From Nanobdellota archaeon (GTDB lineage Archaea; Nanobdellota; Nanobdellia; Pacearchaeales; GW2011-AR1), in the NCBI GenBank assembly GCA_030698805.1, contig JAUYMA010000003.1, positions 12,167-76,166 of the forward strand: DNA of 64,000 nt, in the 5' to 3' direction. This document shows positions 18,098 to 29,419 of the stretch, one piece after another (within the stretch, counting starts at the first letter, position 1; every line of letters begins with the position of its first letter). The notes beneath the pieces were generated by a model. It worked only from the letters and a program-made list of their open reading frames with translations, did no database searches and had not been told where the DNA came from. A program made the translations under genes and the position numbers.

Positions 18098-18262
18098 ATG
18101 CAGAATTCAAGCATAAGAAGGCAAATTGTCATTACAAAGAAAATTGCCAAGCATGGCAAGCAATCAGTAGTTGTTATTCCCAGGGCTGTGGAAAGTCAAT
18201 TGAAACCTGGCACCTTAGCTAAATTTACCATTGATGTATTGGAGGAATCAAAAAATGATTAA
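18098..18262 (+). CDS. small AbrB/SpoVT/MazE-like protein (module copy 1)
   Basis: Hand-translated 54-aa ORF absent from the track (MQNSSIRRQIVITKKIAKHGKQSVVVIPRAVESQLKPGTLAKFTIDVLEESKND). It has a swapped-hairpin-like pattern (K..S..V.IP......L.PG). Paralogues lie at 35880-36047 and 36154-36312. Confidence 0.6.
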   Translation: MQNSSIRRQIVITKKIAKHGKQSVVVIPRAVESQLKPGTLAKFTIDVLEESKND

Positions 18263-19859
18263 TTCTTTACAAACTCAAAGAGCTACATTAGAAGGAGTAA
18301 TCAATTCTGAGAGATATACTGTTAAATCTTTGCTTGGCAAGGGCACATGGGGAAGAGTTTATCGAGCTGAGGATTCTCAATTGAGAATAGATGTAGCAGT
18401 CAAGGTATTGGACCCCTCTCCTTTGGCTGAAGATCAGATGAGGCATCGCCAACTTACTGAAGAACGCATCATAAAGAATGAAGCTCTTGAATTAACTGCT
18501 TGTTCTCATGTTGTGCCTAGAATGTTTGCAGTTGATAAAAATGGAAAGCCTTTCATTGTCATGCCATTATACAAAAATTTTCTCTCTGACAAGATTGAGC
18601 AAGATGGATCGCAATTATTCTTTAGGCAAGGTCTGCAGGAAAGCGATATTGTGCATTATATGAGAGATATCTCCTTAGGACTGGGAGAGTTGCACACCAA
18701 ATTAAGCAGGGTGCATGGAGATTTGAAACCAGATAATCTTGCTTTAGATTCTGAAGGCAATGTTCTTGTAAATGATCTCGGAACTTCCACTTGTGCGTCT
18801 TTAGGCTGGAGCTTGTCGCCAAGAGATAATATGGGGTTTATCTATACCCGCGCCCCAGAATGTTTTGCTAAAGATAATCAGAGGCTAAGCCATCCTACTA
18901 AAGAATCAGATGTGTGGGGATTTGGAGCATTAGCATACAGATTGTTTACTGGCAGTTATCCTTTAGAACCTGAATTTGATGGGAATAATCCAAACAAAGT
19001 CATAGAAGAGCTTGGTGTAGATGGAGGAAACAGGCTCATGAAAAATAAAGTCAGAAATGTGCCTGAAAAATTTAGAAAATACTTAAGAGAATGTTTGAAC
19101 TTTACTCCTTACTTAAGATTTCACGATGGAATACACGCTAACCAGTCCCTTCAAACACTTATTGAAAGCCGCACTCCTGCTGCAATTTTAAAGAAGAGCT
19201 TGCAAAGGGCGGCTTATATTACCGTGCCTTCTGCTCTTGTGGGATTGGGATTATATATGGGAATGGTCCATGAGCCTCAAGACTTAACCATGCCGCAAGT
19301 GAAGATGGAGGGTTACCTTTCAGTAGACAATGATATGCTTGCTGAGGGGGAGAGAATTGTTTTTGATAAAGAAAACATACCTCGTCTTCCTGTTCCTAAA
19401 CTATTTCAAGTGGGCCACCAAGCAGAAATGCGAAAAGCAACAAAAAATAGATACGCGGCATATTTGCTAAAGACTTATGTGCAGACATTTCAAGATATCC
19501 GGCAAGCTTTTGAAGTTCCATTCGTGATAACCGCTCAACATGATACCTGGAGCGGCTATACAACTGATGCAGAAAAACAAGTCCGAGGAATGTATAATGG
19601 TATTTTCTTTGTTATAGCTAGAAACATTGAAGTGGCATTAACTCAAAGCAAGACTCCTAAAGGTACAGTCGATTTGGAAGACGTATGCGCTATAAGCCGT
19701 GTTGGCATTGATAAAGTAAATGAAGCGAGAAGGGCAGCCAATAGTTTTGATTTTAATGACTATATTTATGCAAGGAACAAACATGGGGATAGAATTATAG
19801 GGGAAAGAGATGAAGAATTTGTAAAAACCTGGTTAAGTTATATTAATTTAAATCTTTAA
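18255..19859 (+). CDS. membrane-spanning Hanks-type Ser/Thr protein kinase (module copy 1)
   Basis: LLGKGTWGRVY (Gly loop), VAVKVL, HGDLKPDNLAL, VNDLGTS and TRAPE. One TM (ITVPSALVGLGLYMGMV) followed by a roughly 190-aa C-terminal domain. Start set to ATG 18255, in an 8-nt overlap (ATGATTAA) with the small ORF. Confidence 0.85.
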   Translation: MINSLQTQRATLEGVINSERYTVKSLLGKGTWGRVYRAEDSQLRIDVAVKVLDPSPLAEDQMRHRQLTEERIIKNEALELTACSHVVPRMFAVDKNGKPFIVMPLYKNFLSDKIEQDGSQLFFRQGLQESDIVHYMRDISLGLGELHTKLSRVHGDLKPDNLALDSEGNVLVNDLGTSTCASLGWSLSPRDNMGFIYTRAPECFAKDNQRLSHPTKESDVWGFGALAYRLFTGSYPLEPEFDGNNPNKVIEELGVDGGNRLMKNKVRNVPEKFRKYLRECLNFTPYLRFHDGIHANQSLQTLIESRTPAAILKKSLQRAAYITVPSALVGLGLYMGMVHEPQDLTMPQVKMEGYLSVDNDMLAEGERIVFDKENIPRLPVPKLFQVGHQAEMRKATKNRYAAYLLKTYVQTFQDIRQAFEVPFVITAQHDTWSGYTTDAEKQVRGMYNGIFFVIARNIEVALTQSKTPKGTVDLEDVCAISRVGIDKVNEARRAANSFDFNDYIYARNKHGDRIIGERDEEFVKTWLSYINLNL

Positions 19860-20772
19860 CTTCTTTCGCTATAAGCAGTTCGCTGAATAAGGGACTTGTT
19901 CCTATCTGAATTAAACGGTAAATCTCTCTAATGTAAGAAAGTAAAACTGCCTCTTCTCCCCTTGCAGATTTTATAGCTTCTAGACATTTACCAAAATGAT
20001 ATTTCTCTTTTCCTGAATTTATCTTATGAATTGCATTCTCATCTTTTCTTAAATAAGCCTCGTAATAAAGCGAGAAATAATTCTGCAATTCTTTTACGAG
20101 ATTTTTTGTTTCTTTTCCACATTTAACTTTTTTACTGGCAGCGTGAAGATAAGTATAAGATATTGCATGCCCTATATGAGTTAAAAAAGTTAGCAATTCC
20201 CAAGCTAATGCAGGATTTCTTTCCTCCTGCTCTTTCGTTAATATACGCCTACAGAAAAGAACAAATTTATCATGCTGGTCTCTCAACTCAGTTATATCTT
20301 GGAGATGTTTAAACTCTCCTTTTTCAGTGTCTCTATTTAAGATTTCAATAGTCTCCTGGATGATTATGAAAAGTCTTCTTAGGAGCACATCATATTTTTG
20401 GTCTGTTGGCTCAGAGAGATTTTCCAGAGTGCATTTATTCGCGGTTCTATCAGTCAGCTCAAATCCTAGTAAAAGGGGTAAAGTTGCTTTAATTTCTTTA
20501 AATGACTTTTCATCCAGATTTTCTATGGTAATTGCATCAAATCCTCTTCTGTAAAGATGAGTTAAGAGTGCCCTTACATCTGATCTTGCCTCATTATCTA
20601 AGACAACTAAGGTCATCTTCTTTTTTAGCACTGCTGATTGAATAATTAAAGAAGTATCTTTCTCCTGCAACCGAATTTTATCTCCTTCTTTAAGGCCTTT
20701 TTTATCCACCCATGATTTAGGAAGATAAATAGTGTAACCTCCTCCCCCTTGTTTGATGAGTGTTCTTTCCAT
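19843..20772 (-). CDS. AbrB/SpoVT-domain plus PhoU-like regulator (module copy 1)
   Basis: N-terminus MERTLIKQGGGGYTIYLPKSWVDKKGLKEGDKIRL is an AbrB/SpoVT fold pattern. It is followed by a helical, PhoU-like body with the ...FCRRIL... motif shared by all three copies. The 3' end overlaps the kinase 3' end by 17 nt. Confidence 0.75.
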   Translation of the reverse strand: MERTLIKQGGGGYTIYLPKSWVDKKGLKEGDKIRLQEKDTSLIIQSAVLKKKMTLVVLDNEARSDVRALLTHLYRRGFDAITIENLDEKSFKEIKATLPLLLGFELTDRTANKCTLENLSEPTDQKYDVLLRRLFIIIQETIEILNRDTEKGEFKHLQDITELRDQHDKFVLFCRRILTKEQEERNPALAWELLTFLTHIGHAISYTYLHAASKKVKCGKETKNLVKELQNYFSLYYEAYLRKDENAIHKINSGKEKYHFGKCLEAIKSARGEEAVLLSYIREIYRLIQIGTSPLFSELLIAKEVKDLN

Positions 20773-20986: not shown

Positions 20987-22468
20987 ATGGCTAAAAATGA
21001 AGCAATGGAAGCCCTGCAGAGGGAGAATCTGCTCTTAAAATCAGAAGTAGAGAGATTATCATCTCCACCGTTTAGAGCAGGGACAGTGCTAGACACTGGA
21101 AAAAAGACAGTCAGGGTATTTGTTGATGGCTCTGGCACTTATGAAATCGGACATAATGAATCTCTCAATGGAAAAGTTAAGAGGGGTTGCAGAGTGACAT
21201 TGAATAAAGACCTCGCAATAGTGGACTCTTCGGAATTTAGCGACTTAGGAAGTCAGGTAGCGACAGTTGATGAAGTTGAGCCAAACAGAATAAGAGTTGA
21301 ACTAAAAGGCGAACATAAATATGTATTGAGTATATCTCCCGATGTCCGGGCCGGAGATGAGGTTGTTCTTGATTCTTCTGGACTGCTTGCTATAGAAAAA
21401 CTTTCTAGGAAGAAGACGAAATATAATCTTGAGAGAGTTCCTCAAATACCTTGGGACCGAATTGGAGGATTAGAAGAAACTATCAAGAGTATACGTTCTG
21501 AGATTGAGCATCCTTTTGTTCATCGAGAAGTATATGCAAGATATGGCAGTTCTCCTATCAAAGGAGCTTTGCTTTTTGGCCCTCCAGGATGTGGGAAGAC
21601 TCTTGTAGCCAAGGCTATTGCATACAATCTTGCAAAAACTACGGGACACGAAGATGGCCATTTCATTAGCATAAAGGGACCTGAAATCCTTAATATGTGG
21701 CTTGGTAATAGCGAGGCAAATGTGAGGAGAATTTATCAGTCTGCTCGTGAAGTTGCAAATGGGGCTCTAGTGGTTATCTTTATCGATGAAGCGGAATCTA
21801 TCTTTAGAGTAAGAGGAAGCAGCGTGTCTACTGATGCTTATGATTCTATTGTGCCTCAGCTCTTAACTGAAATGGATGGATTAGAGGAGAATCATAATAT
21901 TATCACTTTGCTTGCTACCAATAGAGAAGACTCTATTGATCCTGCAGTCTTAAGACCTGGCAGAATAGACCGAAAAATAAAGATACCTCGCCCTTCAAGG
22001 GAAGGTGCTTACGAGATTTTTGGAATCTATCTTAAGGATAAACCTGTCCAAGGATTGTTTAAAGGCAGCAAAAGAGAGAGCCTGACACATGAAGCTGTTG
22101 AGAGAATCTATTCTCCAGAGCCAGTTTGTACTGTTGTCAATCCTCATGGCGAGGCCTTAGGCTCATTCACATATAGAAATATGATTAGTGGAGCGATGAT
22201 CAAAGGAATCGTAGATCGCGCTTGCAGATATGCTATCGAAAGAGAAACTGTCGGCGGCACAATCGGGATTGGTAAAGAAGATATTTCGAGAGCATTAGAT
22301 ACTGAACTTAGAGAAAACTTAGAATTAGATCAATTTTTTGTCGAGAGCGATTGGAATGATGTTTTCGGAGATAAAGGGAAGCAGATGTATGAGGCTCACA
22401 AACGCGGCTATTTACAATTTAGAAAAGGACCCGGTCAAATTCAAACAGCTGAAAGGGGGCAACAGTAA
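20987..22468 (+). CDS. ARC/Mpa-type AAA+ ATPase (coiled coil, two OB-like segments, AAA module)
   Basis: N-terminal coiled coil (EALQRENLLLKSEVERL) and two beta-rich OB-like stretches. Walker A GPPGCGKT, Walker B VVIFIDEAE, then SIFRVRGSSVSTDAYDSIVPQLLTEMDG and NREDSIDPAVLRPGRIDRKIKIPRP. These closely resemble mycobacterial Mpa / Rhodococcus ARC as I recall them. The C-terminus ...AERGQQ has no HbYX-type tail. Confidence 0.85.
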   Translation: MAKNEAMEALQRENLLLKSEVERLSSPPFRAGTVLDTGKKTVRVFVDGSGTYEIGHNESLNGKVKRGCRVTLNKDLAIVDSSEFSDLGSQVATVDEVEPNRIRVELKGEHKYVLSISPDVRAGDEVVLDSSGLLAIEKLSRKKTKYNLERVPQIPWDRIGGLEETIKSIRSEIEHPFVHREVYARYGSSPIKGALLFGPPGCGKTLVAKAIAYNLAKTTGHEDGHFISIKGPEILNMWLGNSEANVRRIYQSAREVANGALVVIFIDEAESIFRVRGSSVSTDAYDSIVPQLLTEMDGLEENHNIITLLATNREDSIDPAVLRPGRIDRKIKIPRPSREGAYEIFGIYLKDKPVQGLFKGSKRESLTHEAVERIYSPEPVCTVVNPHGEALGSFTYRNMISGAMIKGIVDRACRYAIERETVGGTIGIGKEDISRALDTELRENLELDQFFVESDWNDVFGDKGKQMYEAHKRGYLQFRKGPGQIQTAERGQQ

Positions 22469-22469
22469 G

Positions 22470-22895
22470 ATGAGAACATTAGAACAAACCCCTGAAAATC
22501 AGAAGTCTGGAGATCAGAAAGAATCGGGATTATCATCTATGGATGTAATGCCAATTATAGTTACTGCCAGACCTAGCTTGTCTGAAGCAGAGAATGCATT
22601 AATGAGAAGACTTCCTGCTTCCTATACGGAAAGAACTGTAAGAGATGTCTTAAGTTATATCATGGGATCTGCTGTAGCTGATACAGAAGCTTCAACAATG
22701 AAGAGTTTAAGAAACGAACTTGGAGCGGCTGGTAGCTATATCCTTGTTAATGGGAAAGAAGCAAAGCTGACTGACAGAGTAGAAGGATATCTTGTTGATA
22801 GAACTGAAACTGTCGAAGGCAGACCAATAAAATATCGACAGCTTGAGATAGAAATTTCTGCGGTTCAACAGGGAGGTTATCAGAGAAGATTCTAG
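22470..22895 (+). CDS. ubiquitin-like (beta-grasp, ThiS/MoaD/SAMP-like) protein precursor with GG plus 5-aa tail
   Basis: 141 aa starting 1 nt after the AAA stop. The N-terminal roughly 40 aa are polar and disordered-looking. The C-terminal part reads ...SYILVNGKEAKLTDRVEGYL...QLEIEISAVQQGG-YQRRF. The diglycine is at codons 135-136 (22872-22877). Confidence 0.6.
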   Translation: MRTLEQTPENQKSGDQKESGLSSMDVMPIIVTARPSLSEAENALMRRLPASYTERTVRDVLSYIMGSAVADTEASTMKSLRNELGAAGSYILVNGKEAKLTDRVEGYLVDRTETVEGRPIKYRQLEIEISAVQQGGYQRRF

Positions 22896-22922: not shown

Positions 22923-23900
22923 ATGAAAAATTTAAATTTACTTTTAATTGGAGAAGAACCTTCAGAGAGGCCAATAGTAGAAAAAGGCCTTGGCCTCGAT
23001 GAAGTGCATATCTCTAGCTATGCACATGATAAAGCATTCAAATATGCTGAATTAATAATACAAAGAAAGGGAAGAAGTCTTGAAGTTGGAGGCTTTTTAA
23101 CCACGCCTAAAGAAGCAAGAGACCGAGTTGCCAGAGATGCATTTCTTGCCCGAGATCAAGAAGTTACTTCTGTTTCTTATATATTGAGTCCTCAAGATGT
23201 TAAAAAAGCTAAACAAGAGCTTGACAAAATGGGACAGAGAATTGTGGGGTGGTGGCATAGTCACGGACGTATGAGAACTTTCCACTCTGATATTGATGAT
23301 AAAAATCAGATGGTCTTGCTTAATCAAATAGCGCCTTCTAATTATTCTGTAATAAGACAAGAAGAAACAAGAGGTTTACAAAGCAGGTTAGAAGGGAACT
23401 CTCTTATTTTCTGGGATCCTGCTAATCCAAGAAAAGTATACTCTCTAGATATCAAGAATGATAATCCTGAGCTTATAGCTAAGCGATTACGCATAACTAA
23501 AGAGGAGCAGATTGGATTCGCTTATAGCTTTGTTGTTAATCATCATAGATGGTTAAATTTTAGAGTACCTTATTGTGAAATAGCCACTAGGGAAGTGTGT
23601 TCTGGATGCTTAAATGATAATGCTAAAAGTAAGACAACTGGATACAAAATATTTGATGAAGGAGATTTTGAAATTGATGAAGAACAACTTATCGTAGAAA
23701 TAGATGAACGAGTACATTTAGCTGGGACAAGGAGGAAGTATTTCTTGCCTGAAGATTTTGAAAGGGAAAGGGCTGCAGGCACGCTGACGAAACCTGAATT
23801 TGCCTTAGGCACCTCTCCAATTTACCCTGCTCATGCAAGCAATCTTGATTTGACTCAGTCTCCACCTATAAATTATGCTAAGAGGTATTGGAAAAAATGA
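22923..23900 (+). CDS. JAMM/MPN+ metalloprotease (JAB domain)
   Basis: Complete JAMM signature: E in LEVGGFL, then H-x-H-x7-S-x2-D in WWHSHGRMRTFHSDID (23256-23297). The C-terminal extension has a Cys cluster, CEIATREVCSGC. Confidence 0.85.
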   Translation: MKNLNLLLIGEEPSERPIVEKGLGLDEVHISSYAHDKAFKYAELIIQRKGRSLEVGGFLTTPKEARDRVARDAFLARDQEVTSVSYILSPQDVKKAKQELDKMGQRIVGWWHSHGRMRTFHSDIDDKNQMVLLNQIAPSNYSVIRQEETRGLQSRLEGNSLIFWDPANPRKVYSLDIKNDNPELIAKRLRITKEEQIGFAYSFVVNHHRWLNFRVPYCEIATREVCSGCLNDNAKSKTTGYKIFDEGDFEIDEEQLIVEIDERVHLAGTRRKYFLPEDFERERAAGTLTKPEFALGTSPIYPAHASNLDLTQSPPINYAKRYWKK

Positions 23901-25306
23901 TAGAAAAAAATATTAGATATGATCGACAAGAAAGAATCCAAAATTGGGACCAAAGTAAATTAACCAAAGCGAGAGCAATACTTATTGGCGGAGCACAATT
24001 AACTCATTTTACTGCGGCATCGCTAGCGGCTCTTGGAATAGGAAATATAGAAGTGTATATTCCTCAAGGAGAAAAAACACAGGGATTCCTGACACCTTTA
24101 GGGGGAGAACCTAGAGATCTTGAAAGCAAATTAAGGCAAATGAATCCCTCCTCCTCTATAAAAGTAGGAACATTTGATACAGAGCTTAACTTGACTCAGA
24201 ACCGCCCAGATATATTGCTTGATCTTACTAACTCGCCAGAGATGAAAGATAAATCAATTGGAATTTCTTCTTTGTATGGTATTCCAATAATCTCTGCTTC
24301 GAATGGTAAAACTGGAGGAGCATTCTACTTAGGGACACTGGGAGAGATACCTGCTAGTGCACGACTAGAAGATTATGCAGGTTCTACCCAAGGGGGATTT
24401 TCAAGTGAGATTATGGCTGGAATGATAACTGAAGAAGTAAGAAAAAGTTTAATGCCTTTAAGAGAAGGAGAAAAACCAGTTAAAAGCTTGGCATATCAGG
24501 GCACTGCTGAAAGAAGATTTGCTAGAGAAGGAGATTTTGAAGCAGACCCTTATGAAAACATTTCAGAAAAAAGAATATTAATCGTTGGTGCAGGAGCATT
24601 AGGCAACTTTACAGCACTGGGGGCTGCTCTTGAAGGAATAGGAAATATAGATATATTAGACTTTGATGAGGTTGAGGCCCACAACCTTAATAGACAAATA
24701 CTATTTTACGATGCAGTTGGAAGAAAGAAAGCAGAGGCTTTGGCCGCAAAGGTAAGAGAAATTAATCCTCATGCAGAGGTAAGAAGTCTTGTAGGAAAGC
24801 TTGATGAGAATACTATTTATTTTGAGAAAAATAGACCTGACGTGATATTAGATTGTGTGGATAATTTTGCGACAAGAGCCCTAATTAATTACTTTGCCGT
24901 GAGATATGGCATACCTCTCGTTTCAGGAGGCACAAATTCTCAATCTGGACAAGTTGTAGTATACGAACCTGGAATGAGTTCGTGCCTTCAATGTAAATTA
25001 GATGTGGAGAAAACTCTTGCCCTCTCATTACAAGGAAGCAAATGTACAAACTCTCCTGATCCTAGCGTAATTATGACAAACGAAATCGTTGGGGGTATGA
25101 TGATTGGAGAGACACTCAAAGTCATGGACAAAGGATATGGCACGCCTGTCTCCAAGATTCTTAAATATGATTCGAATGTCCCTATCCGGGGCGGATTAAT
25201 TGGAGCAGGAGACCCCTGCGATTGTACGCGCGGAGATATGAAGAAGTGGTTGACAGGAGTCAAAGAGAGACTTGAAGATATTTCGGAGGCATCTCATGGC
25301 GTTTAG
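23897..25306 (+). CDS. E1-like activating enzyme with two fused ThiF/MoeB-type domains
   Basis: First half has RYDRQ plus a degenerate nucleotide loop (ILIGGAQLT). Second half is a canonical adenylation domain: ILIVGAGALGN, DFDEVEAHNLNRQILF and DCVDNFATR, with paired Cys motifs CLQC and CDC. ATG 23897 forms an ATGA overlap with the JAB stop; the track start at 23888 is TTG. Confidence 0.85.
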   Translation: MIEKNIRYDRQERIQNWDQSKLTKARAILIGGAQLTHFTAASLAALGIGNIEVYIPQGEKTQGFLTPLGGEPRDLESKLRQMNPSSSIKVGTFDTELNLTQNRPDILLDLTNSPEMKDKSIGISSLYGIPIISASNGKTGGAFYLGTLGEIPASARLEDYAGSTQGGFSSEIMAGMITEEVRKSLMPLREGEKPVKSLAYQGTAERRFAREGDFEADPYENISEKRILIVGAGALGNFTALGAALEGIGNIDILDFDEVEAHNLNRQILFYDAVGRKKAEALAAKVREINPHAEVRSLVGKLDENTIYFEKNRPDVILDCVDNFATRALINYFAVRYGIPLVSGGTNSQSGQVVVYEPGMSSCLQCKLDVEKTLALSLQGSKCTNSPDPSVIMTNEIVGGMMIGETLKVMDKGYGTPVSKILKYDSNVPIRGGLIGAGDPCDCTRGDMKKWLTGVKERLEDISEASHGV

Positions 25307-26114
25307 ATTAGGAGAAGAAGTTATTATCAGAAAAGCATCGGCAGGTCAAGGTAATTATTATCATGGTGGGACAGTAAAACAAGTTCCTCTCGGATCTCGC
25401 GGAAGAATAGTTGAGATGGATGCTCCTGAATCCATTAGGCTTTTTTTGGAAGCCAACCCTAAAGCCGAAGTAAATCCTAGAAAGAGAAATTTTTGGGATA
25501 AAGTAATAGAATATCTTGGCATAAAGGAAAAGTTCCTTGAAAAGTCTTCGTACTGGCTTGTTCATCCTGCGGAGATTTCTCCAAGATCCGATCCTTCTCC
25601 AAAACCCCAGATTTCAACATCAAATCTACAGCTACTCTTGAGCAATAATACTATTGAGGCAGTTAACGATGCAGACAAATCTGCTTTTCAACCTGGATTT
25701 AACGTTAGAGAAGAATTTGCAGTGTGGGTAAGAAAACAATTCCCTCAATTAGAAGATTATGTGAAAAGAAAGGAGAAATATAAAGAATTAGAAGAAAGAA
25801 GAGATGAAGTTATGTCCGGAGCTAGAAAAGCATATGATCATGCTATGCAAACTGCTGGAGGTTGTGCAAGAACTGGATTTCAAGTTTCTTTTGCAAGACT
25901 GATAGGCGATAAAAACACTCTCACAGGTCTTGAAGGATCTGCTTTAGATGCCCCTGATCGTTCAGTAAAATATTTTACTATGAAAGAGGAAGATACCGAA
26001 GGAAGCGAATCAGAGCTATTTCCCTCTAATTTGAATAAATTTGTAATAACTATAGAACGCTCTTCTCTCAGTCTCGGTAGTAAAGATAAACACTATGGGA
26101 CAAGGAGGAAATAA
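25296..26114 (+). CDS. unknown-family protein P1 (Ubl-operon paralogue family)
   Basis: 272 aa, with a GGAGG SD-like site 7 nt upstream and an 11-nt overlap with the E1 stop. Shares GNYYHGGTVKQVPLGS, FQPGFNVREEF-x-VWVR-x-QFP and EERRDEV-x9-H-x7-C with P2 (and P3). Confidence 0.6.
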   Translation: MAFRLGEEVIIRKASAGQGNYYHGGTVKQVPLGSRGRIVEMDAPESIRLFLEANPKAEVNPRKRNFWDKVIEYLGIKEKFLEKSSYWLVHPAEISPRSDPSPKPQISTSNLQLLLSNNTIEAVNDADKSAFQPGFNVREEFAVWVRKQFPQLEDYVKRKEKYKELEERRDEVMSGARKAYDHAMQTAGGCARTGFQVSFARLIGDKNTLTGLEGSALDAPDRSVKYFTMKEEDTEGSESELFPSNLNKFVITIERSSLSLGSKDKHYGTRRK

Positions 26115-26115
26115 A

Positions 26116-26910
26116 ATGAATGGAAATACTTTGGGTGAGATGTTATTGGCTGCAGAACCTTTTGATATAGGTCAAGAAGTCGCTATAAGGAGAGCCTTGA
26201 ATGGGAAAGGCAATTATTATCATGGTGGGACAGTAAAACAAGTTCCCTTAGGTTCAAAGGGCACTATCATTGAATTAGGAGGACAGAGCATAAAACTTCT
26301 TTTAGCGAGAAAGCCTAATATTGAAGCTATTCCTGAAAAGAAAACATTATGGAATACGATAAGAAGCTACTTCGGCCTGAAAGAGATAAGAGCTGAGCGT
26401 CCTGATAATGAAAATTATTGGACAGTACATCCTGACGAAATTGCTTCAAAAAATCCTTCTATTCCAAGACCCAAAGTTGAAGAAGCAAATCTTGAAAATC
26501 TCCTAAAAGGAAATGTTGTTGAAACAGTGAATGAATCTGGCAGCACTGCTTTTCAACCTGGATTTAACGTTAGAGAAGAATTCGTAGTGTGGGTAAGGGA
26601 ACAGTTTCCTGATTTAGAAAAATATGCAGGGGGAAGAAAGTCTTATTCAGAGCTCGATGAACGTAGAGAGGAAGTAAGACTCGCTGCGATAAAAGCCTGC
26701 CAACACGGAGTTAAGACCACTAATAGTTGTGTTAAAGGATATTTTGAAGATCATCTCTCTTATTTCAGAGGCTCTGACGGTGGGAGATTCTATAATAATT
26801 TGTGCGCATTAACCCAGCTTATTGAACAAGTTGCAGTCAATATAGGCCGGTCGTCTAATTGGCATTACGGAACTAATTTGAAAAGAGGGAGGAGAAAAAA
26901 CAATGAATAA
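26116..26910 (+). CDS. unknown-family protein P2 (paralogue of P1)
   Basis: 264 aa from ATG 26116, with AGGAGG upstream and 1 nt after the P1 stop. An alternative ATG is at 26095. Same motif set as P1. Confidence 0.6.
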   Translation: MNGNTLGEMLLAAEPFDIGQEVAIRRALNGKGNYYHGGTVKQVPLGSKGTIIELGGQSIKLLLARKPNIEAIPEKKTLWNTIRSYFGLKEIRAERPDNENYWTVHPDEIASKNPSIPRPKVEEANLENLLKGNVVETVNESGSTAFQPGFNVREEFVVWVREQFPDLEKYAGGRKSYSELDERREEVRLAAIKACQHGVKTTNSCVKGYFEDHLSYFRGSDGGRFYNNLCALTQLIEQVAVNIGRSSNWHYGTNLKRGRRKNNE

Positions 26911-27676
26911 AAAGATTTTAGATAAAATGCTGTTGGCTCCTGAGCCTGAAGTCGGACACTCTTCTGAAAAGGGATTTAATCCTATTTTTAATGTGAGGGA
27001 GGAGTTCCCCCTATGGGTGCAAGAACAATTTAAGCATTTAACCAAACATGCAAAGAGAAAAATGGCTTATGAGGAACTTGAAAAGCGTAGAGATGAGGTC
27101 TATCAGGCTGCGCTTGGGGTGGTTAAACATGGTTTGATGTCTACTGATGCCTGTGCAACAGCAAGGTTGCGAGAAGGATGGGAAGATTTTGAAAGAGGAT
27201 TTGGCGAACAAAGTAATCCCGCGGGAAGAGCTGGAAGTCTAGAGAAATTTGTAGAAGCAATAAAAGACTTGTCAGTAAGTCTTGGTGGGAATTCCCACTA
27301 TACTGAAGCAGGCATTTTCTTAGGAGGCAATAATTATAAAACTGGGAACCTTAAAGCATTTGTTTATAGAATAGGCGATAAAAACGGAGAGAACTCTGAA
27401 TATTTTATTCTTGAGGAACCTCAGACATTTGAGGGAGATATTCAGCCCGCCCTCATCGGAGAACTTACTCATTTAACAAATAAAGATGTAACTATTCTTA
27501 GAAGGCTTGCTGACTACTTCAAAGGTCCCGAAATTGATTTTATTGAGCGTGCTGATCGCATTGTACCTGAAGAAGGAAGCAGACCTTGGGCAAGCTCATT
27601 TTACGGAGTTGCTGAAAGATTAAAGGGCTATGGAAGGGGTTTATCTTCATGGCTGGGAGGGGAAGATGAACTTTGA
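26903..27676 (+). CDS. unknown-family protein P3 (paralogue lacking the N-terminal GNYYHGG domain)
   Basis: 257 aa with an 8-nt overlap (ATGAATAA) with P2. Keeps MLLAPEP, GFNPIFNVREEFPLWVQEQF and EKRRDEV-x9-H-x7-C. The RIGDKN motif sits in a different order than in P1. Confidence 0.6.
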   Translation: MNKKILDKMLLAPEPEVGHSSEKGFNPIFNVREEFPLWVQEQFKHLTKHAKRKMAYEELEKRRDEVYQAALGVVKHGLMSTDACATARLREGWEDFERGFGEQSNPAGRAGSLEKFVEAIKDLSVSLGGNSHYTEAGIFLGGNNYKTGNLKAFVYRIGDKNGENSEYFILEEPQTFEGDIQPALIGELTHLTNKDVTILRRLADYFKGPEIDFIERADRIVPEEGSRPWASSFYGVAERLKGYGRGLSSWLGGEDEL

Positions 27677-27998: not shown

Positions 27999-29103
27999 TA
28001 GAACCGTAGAAGGAAGAATGGCTTATATTCAGAGGTTAGAAGCTAAAGTTAAGAAAGCTGTTAGCGGGGATGTTGATGAGGATTATAGAAAGCTTATTGC
28101 TGAACCGTTAGAAAAAGCTAGAGGCATACCATATTTTGATGATAAACATGCAGCCGTATCTGGAAAACCATTCACATGGGGAAATTTATCAGTAATTCCT
28201 GAAATTGCTGGAATTAGGAATATACACCACCATACTCTTGCAGGGCAGATAGAGCAAGTTAAGGCTTGTGTTGATAATTATTTTAGAATGCTGTTAGAAC
28301 CAATCGCATCCATGCCTTTCTTTTATGCTGATCCTGCATACGATGTTGAGCCAAATTGTGTTGGAGCCAGCCAAATTGTTAGTCGTATTTATGGTTATGA
28401 GCACCCCATTGATGATTTAGAGATGCTTGTAGTTAATTCATCTAAAAGGCGAGATATCTTGCTTGATAAGTTGAGGAACTTTGATAAGCTACCTGGAGCA
28501 ATTGTAGCTGGAGAGAGATGGGTTAGCAGCAATTTTGATGCTTTTAGCAAGGATTTCAGAGAGGAAGAATTAAGAGATAAATTACTTGACCAGGTCTTAT
28601 TGATAGAAGAGAGCAATCATGTTGTTGTGAAAAAAAGAGGGGGAGAAGTATTTGACTTTCCTATTGAAAGGGATAATATAAAGAGGCATGAGGTATGCGG
28701 AATTAGGGAGGGCCTTTGGGTTGCCGGAGTATCTAGCCTTATTGCTCTATACCAATACTTGAATCAGGATGTGGAGAGCCAGTGGAAAGAAATTAGGAAT
28801 AGAGTTGGAGAGGTCAGCAAATCTGCACGAGTTACCGTAGATTATTCTTTAGGGAGAGAGTGCTTTGATGAATTAAGGGAAATTTTTGGAGAGGACTTGC
28901 CTGCAAGATATGTTATGGTTGAATTAAGCTCGAGAAGAAATGAAATGGATTTTGTCAGATATGCATTGGATAGAGTGAGAAGAGAATATCCTTATCCTAA
29001 GGCCCTGGAAGTTATTGGAAAAAGGTATCTTGGGGAAGAAGGATATGGTGAACTTGCTGCAGAAATTTTGAAAGCTGAAAAAGGAGGGGAAGATGAAAAA
29101 TAA
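27982..29103 (+). CDS. hypothetical protein (373 aa), Ubl operon
   Basis: ATG 27982 overlaps the previous stop by 17 nt. No family recognised; it contains a possible nucleophile context, EPNCVGASQ. Confidence 0.5.
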   Translation: MANLIDRTVEGRMAYIQRLEAKVKKAVSGDVDEDYRKLIAEPLEKARGIPYFDDKHAAVSGKPFTWGNLSVIPEIAGIRNIHHHTLAGQIEQVKACVDNYFRMLLEPIASMPFFYADPAYDVEPNCVGASQIVSRIYGYEHPIDDLEMLVVNSSKRRDILLDKLRNFDKLPGAIVAGERWVSSNFDAFSKDFREEELRDKLLDQVLLIEESNHVVVKKRGGEVFDFPIERDNIKRHEVCGIREGLWVAGVSSLIALYQYLNQDVESQWKEIRNRVGEVSKSARVTVDYSLGRECFDELREIFGEDLPARYVMVELSSRRNEMDFVRYALDRVRREYPYPKALEVIGKRYLGEEGYGELAAEILKAEKGGEDEK

Positions 29104-29419
29104 AATAGAAAGAAAACCTTTTGTAATCACTAACTGCCATAAACGCAACTTTAGGGATTGGGTGCAAGATCAGTTTCCTGAAATAAAAAAACATTCTTTT
29201 AGTGATAGTCCTCCTTATACTGCCTTAGAAGAACGCTTTGATGAAGTCCATGCCGCAGCACGACAAGTCTTCAATATTATTTTCTCACGTTCTGATCATG
29301 ATTTACAACGCTATTATTCCCAAGATCGAACTGCTTTAGGTCAAGCTCATCAAAGAAGAGACATCCGAGCGTATGCTTGTGCACTTGATGCTTTTCTTGG
29401 GGCGATTAAGGAGGAATAA
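29093..29419 (+). CDS. unknown-family protein P4 (short paralogue, no H/C pair)
   Basis: 108 aa with an 11-nt overlap. NFRDWVQDQFPEI ... ALEERFDEV aligns without gaps to the P1-P3 core, but the conserved His and Cys are absent. Confidence 0.5.
   Translation: MKNKIERKPFVITNCHKRNFRDWVQDQFPEIKKHSFSDSPPYTALEERFDEVHAAARQVFNIIFSRSDHDLQRYYSQDRTALGQAHQRRDIRAYACALDAFLGAIKEE

Follow-up and report, generated by a model that had tools for sequence, protein, structure and literature searches.

A predicted minimal single-chain E1 and its conserved gene neighbourhood in a Nanobdellota archaeon

This study describes an E1-type protein encoded in the genome of a Nanobdellota archaeon (GenBank assembly GCA_030698805.1), within a stretch of 64,000 nucleotides of contig JAUYMA010000003.1 (positions 12,167 to 76,166, forward strand) to which we refer as the window. 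The protein combines two ThiF-type domains in a single chain; profile homology between the halves, the predicted fold and the residue pattern all describe an N-terminal domain that has the features of an inactive adenylation domain and a C-terminal domain with the full set of active-site motifs. Its gene lies in a neighbourhood that is conserved among relatives and that encodes a small protein with a Gly-Gly motif near its end, which we treat as a ubiquitin-like (Ubl) modifier, a JAB peptidase and AAA+ ATPases. Taken as a whole, the data are best explained by a minimal single-chain E1 that activates the neighbouring Gly-Gly protein, with conjugation and a link to unfolding, and we consider this explanation likely.

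Results

Two related domains in one chain

The gene and the parts of its product that carry the argument are given below. Residues are numbered from the ATG at 23897, unless the 472-residue form that begins at an alternative TTG start (23888) is named.

23897..25306, plus strand: E1 gene, 469 aa and stop; open reading frame (ORF) open and complete
23897..24505, plus strand: N-terminal inactive adenylation-type domain (IAD), residues 1-203; hhalign, MoeB profile match
24506..25303, plus strand: C-terminal active ThiF-type domain (AAD); Pfam ThiF, E 2.1e-52
23915..23929, plus strand: RYDRQ, residues 7-11, candidate arginine finger from the IAD to the AAD site; 60/60, aligned with MoeB RYNRQ
24983..24994, plus strand: CLQC, Cys363 and Cys366, first half of zinc site; both 60/60, at the position of the MoeB/ThiF zinc motif
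25043..25045, plus strand: Cys383, on a short crossover loop, candidate for the catalytic cysteine; 60/60, aligned with the cysteine of MoeB TCVEAG
25217..25225, plus strand: CDC, Cys441 and Cys443, second half of zinc site; both 60/60

On the full protein, Pfam ThiF (PF00899) matches residues 216-429 of the TTG form only, with 178 bits (E 2.1e-52) against a cut-off of 28.1. The N half alone stays below that cut-off (E 0.0025, 17.5 against 28.1 bits, residues 12-56); the N half of one relative (G005) exceeds it with 57 bits. Comparison of profiles brings the two halves together. When an alignment of 60 full-length homologues (A1) was split at window residue 201/202, hhalign aligned the N-half with the C-half profile at a probability of 99.8% (E 2.1e-28, 192 columns, 23% identity), and independently built alignments of 41 N and 41 C halves from related loci gave 99.9% (E 3.3e-31, 208 columns). 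Judged from these profiles, both halves are copies of one domain, with a likeness far beyond chance. Searched against the PDB, the N-half profile finds MoeB (E 8.2e-23), ThiF (1.4e-20) and Uba4 (3e-19), and more weakly the eukaryotic IADs of UBA6 (about 3e-14), SAE1 (about 1e-12) and NAE1 (about 1e-8); the C half aligns with MoeB over profile residues 228-439.

Residue pattern and active-site candidates

The reading of the protein as an inactive and an active domain had been made from motifs, and these are present in the translation as they were read: RYDRQ (7-11) and the degenerate loop ILIGGAQLT (28-36), with no NLNRQ, in the N half; ILIVGAGALGN (227-237), NLNRQILF (263-270) and DCVDNFATR (319-327) in the C half, together with the zinc-type pairs CLQC (363-366) and CDC (441-443). 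Counted over the 60 aligned homologues, G231, G233, D255, D257, N263, R266, Q267, K278, D319, D322 and R327 of the C half are invariant, and G236 is found in 59. In the N half, R7, Y8, R10, Q11 and G31 are invariant, the NLNRQ motif is absent, and the positions of the C-half residues D322 and R327 are taken by N112 (58/60) and K117 (42/60). Most relatives keep the GxGxxA motif and the Asp after strand 2 in the N half (G33 in 42, A36 in 45 and D55 in 47 of the 60). The window protein has A33, T36 and I55 instead, and its N half is therefore more decayed than the family average.

According to Chambers et al. (bioRxiv 2023), Arg9 in the IAD of BilD, the E1 of the Bil antiphage systems, completes the AAD site. 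By analogy we infer that R10 of the window protein may be the arginine that does so here. Its counterpart in the C half, R210, is variable (Lys in 12 and Ser in 11 of the 60 homologues), as expected if the N-half pocket is dead.

A search of the crossover loop for a catalytic cysteine, which the original prediction had proposed as a check, yields one candidate, the lone Cys383, invariant and aligned with its MoeB counterpart. In the structural model this cysteine falls within the block of lowest confidence (residues 381-390; predicted local distance difference test, pLDDT, 64), and such a low value is expected of a mobile crossover loop.

Predicted fold

The AlphaFold2 model, built with A1 as input, has a mean pLDDT of 93.6 and a predicted template modelling score (pTM) of 0.94, and in it the IAD and AAD are packed as a single-chain pseudo-dimer. 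The best PDB matches found by Foldseek are whole single-chain E1s, among them UBA7 (8oif; E 1e-23, TM by query 0.70). In a VIA-align comparison the N half takes the IAD position and the C half the AAD position of both Uba1 and BilD, and the modelled architecture fits BilD as well as it fits eukaryotic E1s. Only about 30 residues separate C366 from N395, with small gaps relative to MoeB, and they are modelled as two short helices and a loop; the protein therefore has no helical Cys domain (SCCH/CYS). The 26 residues that follow C443 are modelled as one helix at 448-467, and there is therefore no ubiquitin-fold domain (UFD). The structural claim that the gene encodes a minimal IAD-AAD E1 can thus be made with high confidence, and two-domain homology, fold and residue pattern together support the original prediction of a fused, pseudo-dimeric E1. 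A complex prediction for the E1 with ATP and the tail-less Ubl scored 0.02 against a mark of 0.32, which gives no verdict and counts neither for nor against binding.

Compared with the eukaryotic canonical E1s (Uba1, UBA6, UBA7) and the heterodimers SAE1-SAE2 and NAE1-UBA3, the window E1 is without FCCH, SCCH/Cys and UFD domains and has 469 residues against about 1000. The UFD is a feature of eukaryotic E1s, and BilD, like the window E1, does without it.

The operon in the window

The genes around the E1 gene are as follows.

20987..22468, plus strand: AAA+ ATPase of the Mpa/ARC/PAN type, 493 aa; TIGR03689, PDB 5kwa
22470..22895, plus strand: Ubl modifier precursor, 141 aa; Gly-Gly at residues 135-136 (22872-22877), tail YQRRF
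22923..23900, plus strand: JAB/JAMM metallopeptidase, 325 aa; Pfam Prok-JAB, E 7.2e-08, 32.7 bits, above cut-off
25272..27676, plus strand: three paralogous genes (280, 271 and 257 aa) after E1; candidate members of the system, membership uncertain
29093..29419, plus strand: further paralogue gene
18231..19859, plus strand: Ser/Thr kinase, adjoining the operon
19843..20772, minus strand: AbrB/MazE-fold protein, adjoining the operon

The Ubl precursor ends in ...AVQQGG-YQRRF. It has no Pfam match, and its best PDB profile match has an E value of 0.19; the model in the ESM Atlas is of low quality (pLDDT 0.37), with structural neighbours that carry no meaning, so that a beta-grasp fold is only presumed. 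Its gene starts one base after the stop codon of the ATPase gene. The translation of the JAB gene, downstream of it, carries the motif HSHGRMRTFHSDID, and the JAB stop codon TGA shares the letters ATGA with the E1 start, 12 bases 5' of which lies AGAGG.

The ATPase matches TIGR03689, the NCBIfam model for the proteasome ATPase, over residues 7-470 (E 5.9e-113, 378 bits, short of the equivalog cut-off of 505), and matches Mpa (PDB 5kwa) with an E value of 1.7e-77. It is the sole single-module AAA protein of its kind in the genome, the one other member of this class being a two-module, Cdc48-like protein. A C-terminal ending of the form hydrophobic-Tyr-X serves in docking to the proteasome; the window ATPase ends in ...TAERGQQ and has no such ending. 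The genome (1.02 Mb in 11 contigs, 85.5% complete) encodes 20S proteasome alpha and beta subunits, and the E1 is the only ThiF-family gene found in it. No UBC-type E2 was found above the cut-off of UQ_con in this incomplete genome (best E 0.08), nor did the proteins of the operon have an E2 match in Pfam or PADLOC.

The operon in relatives

The neighbourhood was surveyed by iterated hidden Markov model (HMM) searches at 80 E1 loci. A JAB gene is present in 67 of them and the Ubl family in 60. All 60 of these small proteins, as well as the one in the window, have Gly-Gly near the C-terminal end, followed in 58 of the 60 by a tail of 1 to about 30 residues, while the other two end at Gly-Gly; this is the pattern of a modifier precursor that a peptidase trims. 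Most loci have, between Ubl and JAB, a gene for a protein of 370-630 aa that belongs to no Pfam family; this protein, here called the Cys-protein, is located by a clean HMM in 68 of the 80. In the alignment of its sequences (A2, 49 sequences) two positions are invariant: a Gly, and a Cys that lies within YxHPF...QxICxG, a motif that we take to resemble the HPN...C of E2 enzymes.

ATPase genes recur in two forms: a Mpa/PAN-like AAA+ gene 5' of the Ubl gene in 9 loci, and a ClpX-like one (AAA_2 with ClpB_D2-small) in 30, mostly between the Cys-protein and JAB genes. All four of Ubl, Cys-protein, JAB and E1 are present in 53 of the 80 loci; 33 of these add an AAA gene, and the other 20 have none within the fetched stretch. 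At several loci (L022, L030, L035, L037 and others) the JAB ORF is 570-980 aa, two to three times its length in the window, and many of the four-gene loci with no AAA gene nearby have a JAB of this long kind. The gene directly 5' of the Ubl gene encodes, in two bacterial loci (L051, 259-1479; L068, 1097-2290), a metallo-beta-lactamase-fold protein with TPR repeats, and loci with the short form of E1 described below have a further protein of 110-450 aa between the Cys-protein and the ClpX-like ATPase. Relatives of the window's kinase and AbrB/MazE-fold genes lie near E1 in 10 and 8 of the 80 loci, respectively.

The window belongs to a clade with two other loci, L002 and L003, in which the E1s are 61-64% identical. 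The clean HMM finds no Cys-protein in the window (at E up to 10), in L002, in L003 or in the window genome. At the place that the Cys-protein holds in other lineages, and in this clade only, a family of paralogues (about 110-310 aa) flanks E1: the short genes follow E1 in the clade and in L003 also precede it (L003, 5282-6999 and 8410-10162; L002, 9038-9775). The paralogues of the window, L002 and L003 have a common motif F.P.FN.REE..W and invariant H190, C198 and H274; the three window paralogues have no Pfam or PADLOC match. Membership of these proteins in the Cys-protein family was considered and rejected, as the cores are unrelated (hhalign probability 1.4%). An N-terminal domain of about 90 residues is common to the paralogues and some Cys-proteins, and an iterated HMM seeded with the gene at 25272-26114 drifted to the Cys-proteins solely through it.

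Distribution and history

The hosts of the E1 are DPANN-type archaea (Nano-, Woese-, Pace- and Aenigmatarchaeota); Syntrophobacteraceae, Desulfobacterales, Desulfobacca and Methylomirabilota encode a shorter version of about 415 aa, the short form. An N-half HMM matches over its full length mainly in the archaeal long form among the 80 loci, and in most short-form members it matches the first 55 or so residues only. Of 151 genomes sampled from the phylum, 91 contain a ThiF-type match of some kind, and a match that spans both halves is found in 10, including the window's own (11 rows), with about six more that are split or partial. Several ThiF-family matches of the phylum contain an in-frame TGA, TAA or TAG (G144:C36, G146:C9 and single-domain ones); broken genes, assembly errors and recoding are possible explanations. 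One assembly holds four tandem-E1 loci (L002, L010, L025 and L027), so that several paralogous systems, some with the Cys-protein and others lacking it, can reside in one such genome.

The original prediction proposed to place both halves phylogenetically. A tree of 131 domains over 236 columns was built with IQ-TREE in quick mode from 41 N and 41 C halves of archaeal proteins, 20 N and 20 C halves of the short form, and 9 ThiF proteins with a single domain, which came from five carrier genomes. A branch with SH-aLRT 99 has every one of the 61 N halves on the same side, and the 61 C halves are grouped (SH-aLRT 95). The rows of the short form, 16 from bacteria and 4 from archaea, stand beside the same three archaeal rows in both halves, nested inside archaeal diversity. 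Since N and C halves each form a group with the same nesting, the fusion arose once and the halves descended together. In this tree, which samples the family itself and single-domain ThiF proteins of its carriers, the N-half clan joins among the single-domain proteins at a point that the branching does not fix, and duplication of the C-half lineage is one candidate for the origin of the N half. The greater likeness of the N-half profile to MoeB/ThiF than to eukaryotic IADs fits a duplication separate from the eukaryotic one, which it does not prove.

Discussion

A model for the activity of the E1

That the E1 activates the neighbouring Gly-Gly protein for attachment to proteins appears to us reasonably probable. 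We infer adenylation of the Ubl, a thioester, conjugation and a link to unfolding, in steps that might run as follows. The JAB peptidase would first remove the short tail of the Ubl. The C half would then bind ATP-Mg and adenylate the C-terminal Gly-Gly of the Ubl, which is encoded two genes upstream, and the N half, which is without adenylation residues, would act as a structural partner in place of the second MoeB/ThiF subunit and would probably lend the arginine of RYxRQ to the single active site. Cys383, in its short flexible loop, would probably attack the acyl-adenylate, after which the modifier would be passed to proteins: in most relatives by way of the invariant-Cys protein of the operon, perhaps acting like an E2, and in the window genome directly or through some other partner. 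The adjoining ATPase, Mpa/ARC-like here and ClpX-like elsewhere, would unfold the tagged proteins, and we put forward as a hypothesis that it feeds them to unfolding or to the proteasome.

The ATPase next to the window Ubl matches Mpa/ARC over its full length and is accompanied by a 20S proteasome in the genome, as in the Pup-Mpa/ARC system of actinobacteria. The Pup pathway pairs its tag with a PafA-type ligase and the deamidase Dop, whereas the partners of the window tag, which ends in Gly-Gly, are an E1 and a JAB peptidase; furthermore, about 30 of the 80 loci carry the ClpX-like ATPase in place of a Mpa/ARC-like one. Taken to its full extent, the proposal is of an undescribed prokaryotic tag-and-unfold pathway, composed of a Gly-Gly Ubl trimmed by JAB, a minimal IAD-AAD E1, an invariant-Cys protein of divergent E2-like fold in most lineages and a dedicated AAA+ unfoldase. 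We offer this larger claim tentatively, as a possibility short of an even chance. No description of a tandem E1 in DPANN archaea or of the present operon was found in the literature searched, which comprised openly accessible main texts, among them passages by Iyer et al. (2006) and by Ye et al. (2024).

Alternative readings

The same E1 mechanism could serve a module resembling the Bil systems, which would tag viral proteins and have no part in cellular turnover. Such an antiviral reading competes over biological purpose only and not over mechanism. The fit of the architecture to BilD speaks for it, as do the patchy distribution in the phylum (both halves matched in 10 of 151 genomes, with a few more split or partial), the assembly with four loci, and the spread of one family over DPANN-type archaea and a small number of bacterial lineages, its short form branching within archaeal diversity. 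BilD (PDB 8tyz, 8tz0) is itself a single-chain pseudo-dimeric E1 in prokaryotes, and its crossover loop contains a Cys domain that is helical, mobile and about 80 residues long, as Chambers et al. (bioRxiv 2023) describe. This inserted domain is what the window E1, with Cys383 directly on a short loop, does not have. BilD is absent from the best 60 of 80 PDB sequence matches to the E1, and from the best 60 of 102 to its N half, and the Bil systems include a BilB-type E2, of which none was found in the operon or in the window genome at 85.5% completeness. The hosts of BilD are bacteria, whereas those of the window E1 family are mostly DPANN-type archaea and its partners include AAA+ proteins. 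With no Cys domain, a MoeB-like AAD, other partners (AAA+ and the Cys-protein) and other hosts, the family is set apart from BilD.

Searches for defence systems and the surroundings of the loci also argue against an antiviral purpose. PADLOC (2023) gives no system-level match and none for the Ubl, the paralogues or the Cys-protein; it yields for the E1 only generic ThiF-domain matches to Cap2 models (8.8e-25 at residues 218-342, with residues about 218-345 covered by these models in all), and Cap2 of CBASS has an E2 fused N-terminally to its E1, whereas the N half here is of the ThiF type and is no E2. Several loci have housekeeping neighbours (Rpb7, S24e, L10e, MetRS). In the Bub systems the JAB domain is fused to an E1 that follows an oxyester route with no catalytic cysteine in the crossover loop, according to Ye et al. 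2024 (PMC11601596); the window JAB is a separate gene and Cys383 is invariant. On balance we regard an antiviral module as doubtful, though it is the alternative that survives best.

Activation of a sulfur carrier, as by MoeB, ThiF or UbaA, would turn the Gly-Gly protein into a thiocarboxylate for cofactor or tRNA thiolation, with the N half replacing the second subunit. In MoeB and ThiF a single 250-aa domain forms a homodimer, which has two active sites. These two enzymes are the closest sequence relatives of both E1 halves among the best 60 PDB matches (with Uba4 also among the nearest to the active half), and the zinc motif of four cysteines, the crossover-loop cysteine and the short crossover loop are common to them and the window E1, which is moreover the sole ThiF-family gene in a small genome. 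In the window E1, however, the second domain is fused and inactive, and the operon holds a JAB peptidase, a tailed Gly-Gly protein and an AAA+ ATPase. The equivalog models of NCBIfam also miss their cut-offs on it (UbaA 87.8 against 450 bits, MoeB 111.9 against 376.6, ThiF 152.6 against 275.3). No ThiS or MoaD match was found with Pfam, the searches not having extended to MoaE and ThiG, and the best PP-loop match stays below threshold (22.8 against 27 bits); at 85.5% completeness such absences are no proof. Four bacterial carriers own ordinary MoeB/ThiF-type genes besides the tandem E1.

The archaeal UbaA/SAMP/HvJAMM1 system is an E2-independent Ubl system with a MoeB-like E1, which has a crossover-loop cysteine, and a JAMM peptidase. 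UbaA and the window E1 are thus alike in the short-loop cysteine, the Cys4 zinc site and the JAMM partner; UbaA, by contrast, is a single domain where the window E1 has two in one chain, and the SAMPs match ThiS/MoaD families where the window Ubl does not. With a modifier that has a tail after Gly-Gly and adjoins a JAB gene, and with AAA+ ATPases and the invariant-Cys protein recurring in the operon, a sulfur-carrier role is unlikely, with a slight chance of being correct, and the logic of a conjugating E1, to which the original prediction had inclined, is the better supported.

The weakest alternative, that two genes were misjoined by a sequencing or assembly error or that the N half has an unrelated fold, could draw on three of the 80 loci in which E1 lies in two overlapping ORFs and on a half-length database entry (P0066, 263 aa), but it is already refuted, with practically no chance of being true, by a single frame that is conserved in most of the 80 loci and, at similar length, in 107 of the 120 homologues listed, by a model that packs both halves together, and by the MoeB and ThiF matches of the N-half profile. 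The database search gave 577 homologues, of which 120 were listed, and the 107, which are 440-550 aa long, match 90% of the query or more; all 80 loci, taken from independent assemblies of species-representative genomes, match the E1 by tblastn, and the database gene call P0001 (469 aa) is identical to the product described here. The E1 is one gene and no fusion artefact. The split genes (L039, 6149-7541; L071, 6490-7741; L076, 6950-8441) are divided near the half boundary or within the N half and may be frameshifts, genes in decay or a genuine form with two subunits.

Significance

Single-chain E1s that combine an inactive and an active domain were regarded as a hallmark of eukaryotes until the structure of the bacterial BilD was determined. 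The family described here presents the simplest form of such an enzyme, two ThiF domains with a MoeB-like crossover-loop cysteine and neither a Cys domain nor a UFD, found in archaea whose genomes are very small and in some bacteria, and it provides a testable model for the path from homodimeric sulfur-carrier activators to asymmetric conjugating E1s. The recurrence of a tailed Gly-Gly modifier, a JAB peptidase, an unfoldase and the Cys-protein around it suggests a complete tagging pathway. If the proposed tag-and-unfold pathway is real, DPANN-type archaea and a few bacteria would have arrived on their own at a logic like that of the ubiquitin-proteasome system, and the E1 would show, in living organisms, the step from a MoeB homodimer to a eukaryote-type pseudo-dimer, before acquisition of the Cys domain. 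Should the tag lead proteins to the unfoldase or the proteasome, the system would bear on the origin of ubiquitin-dependent degradation.

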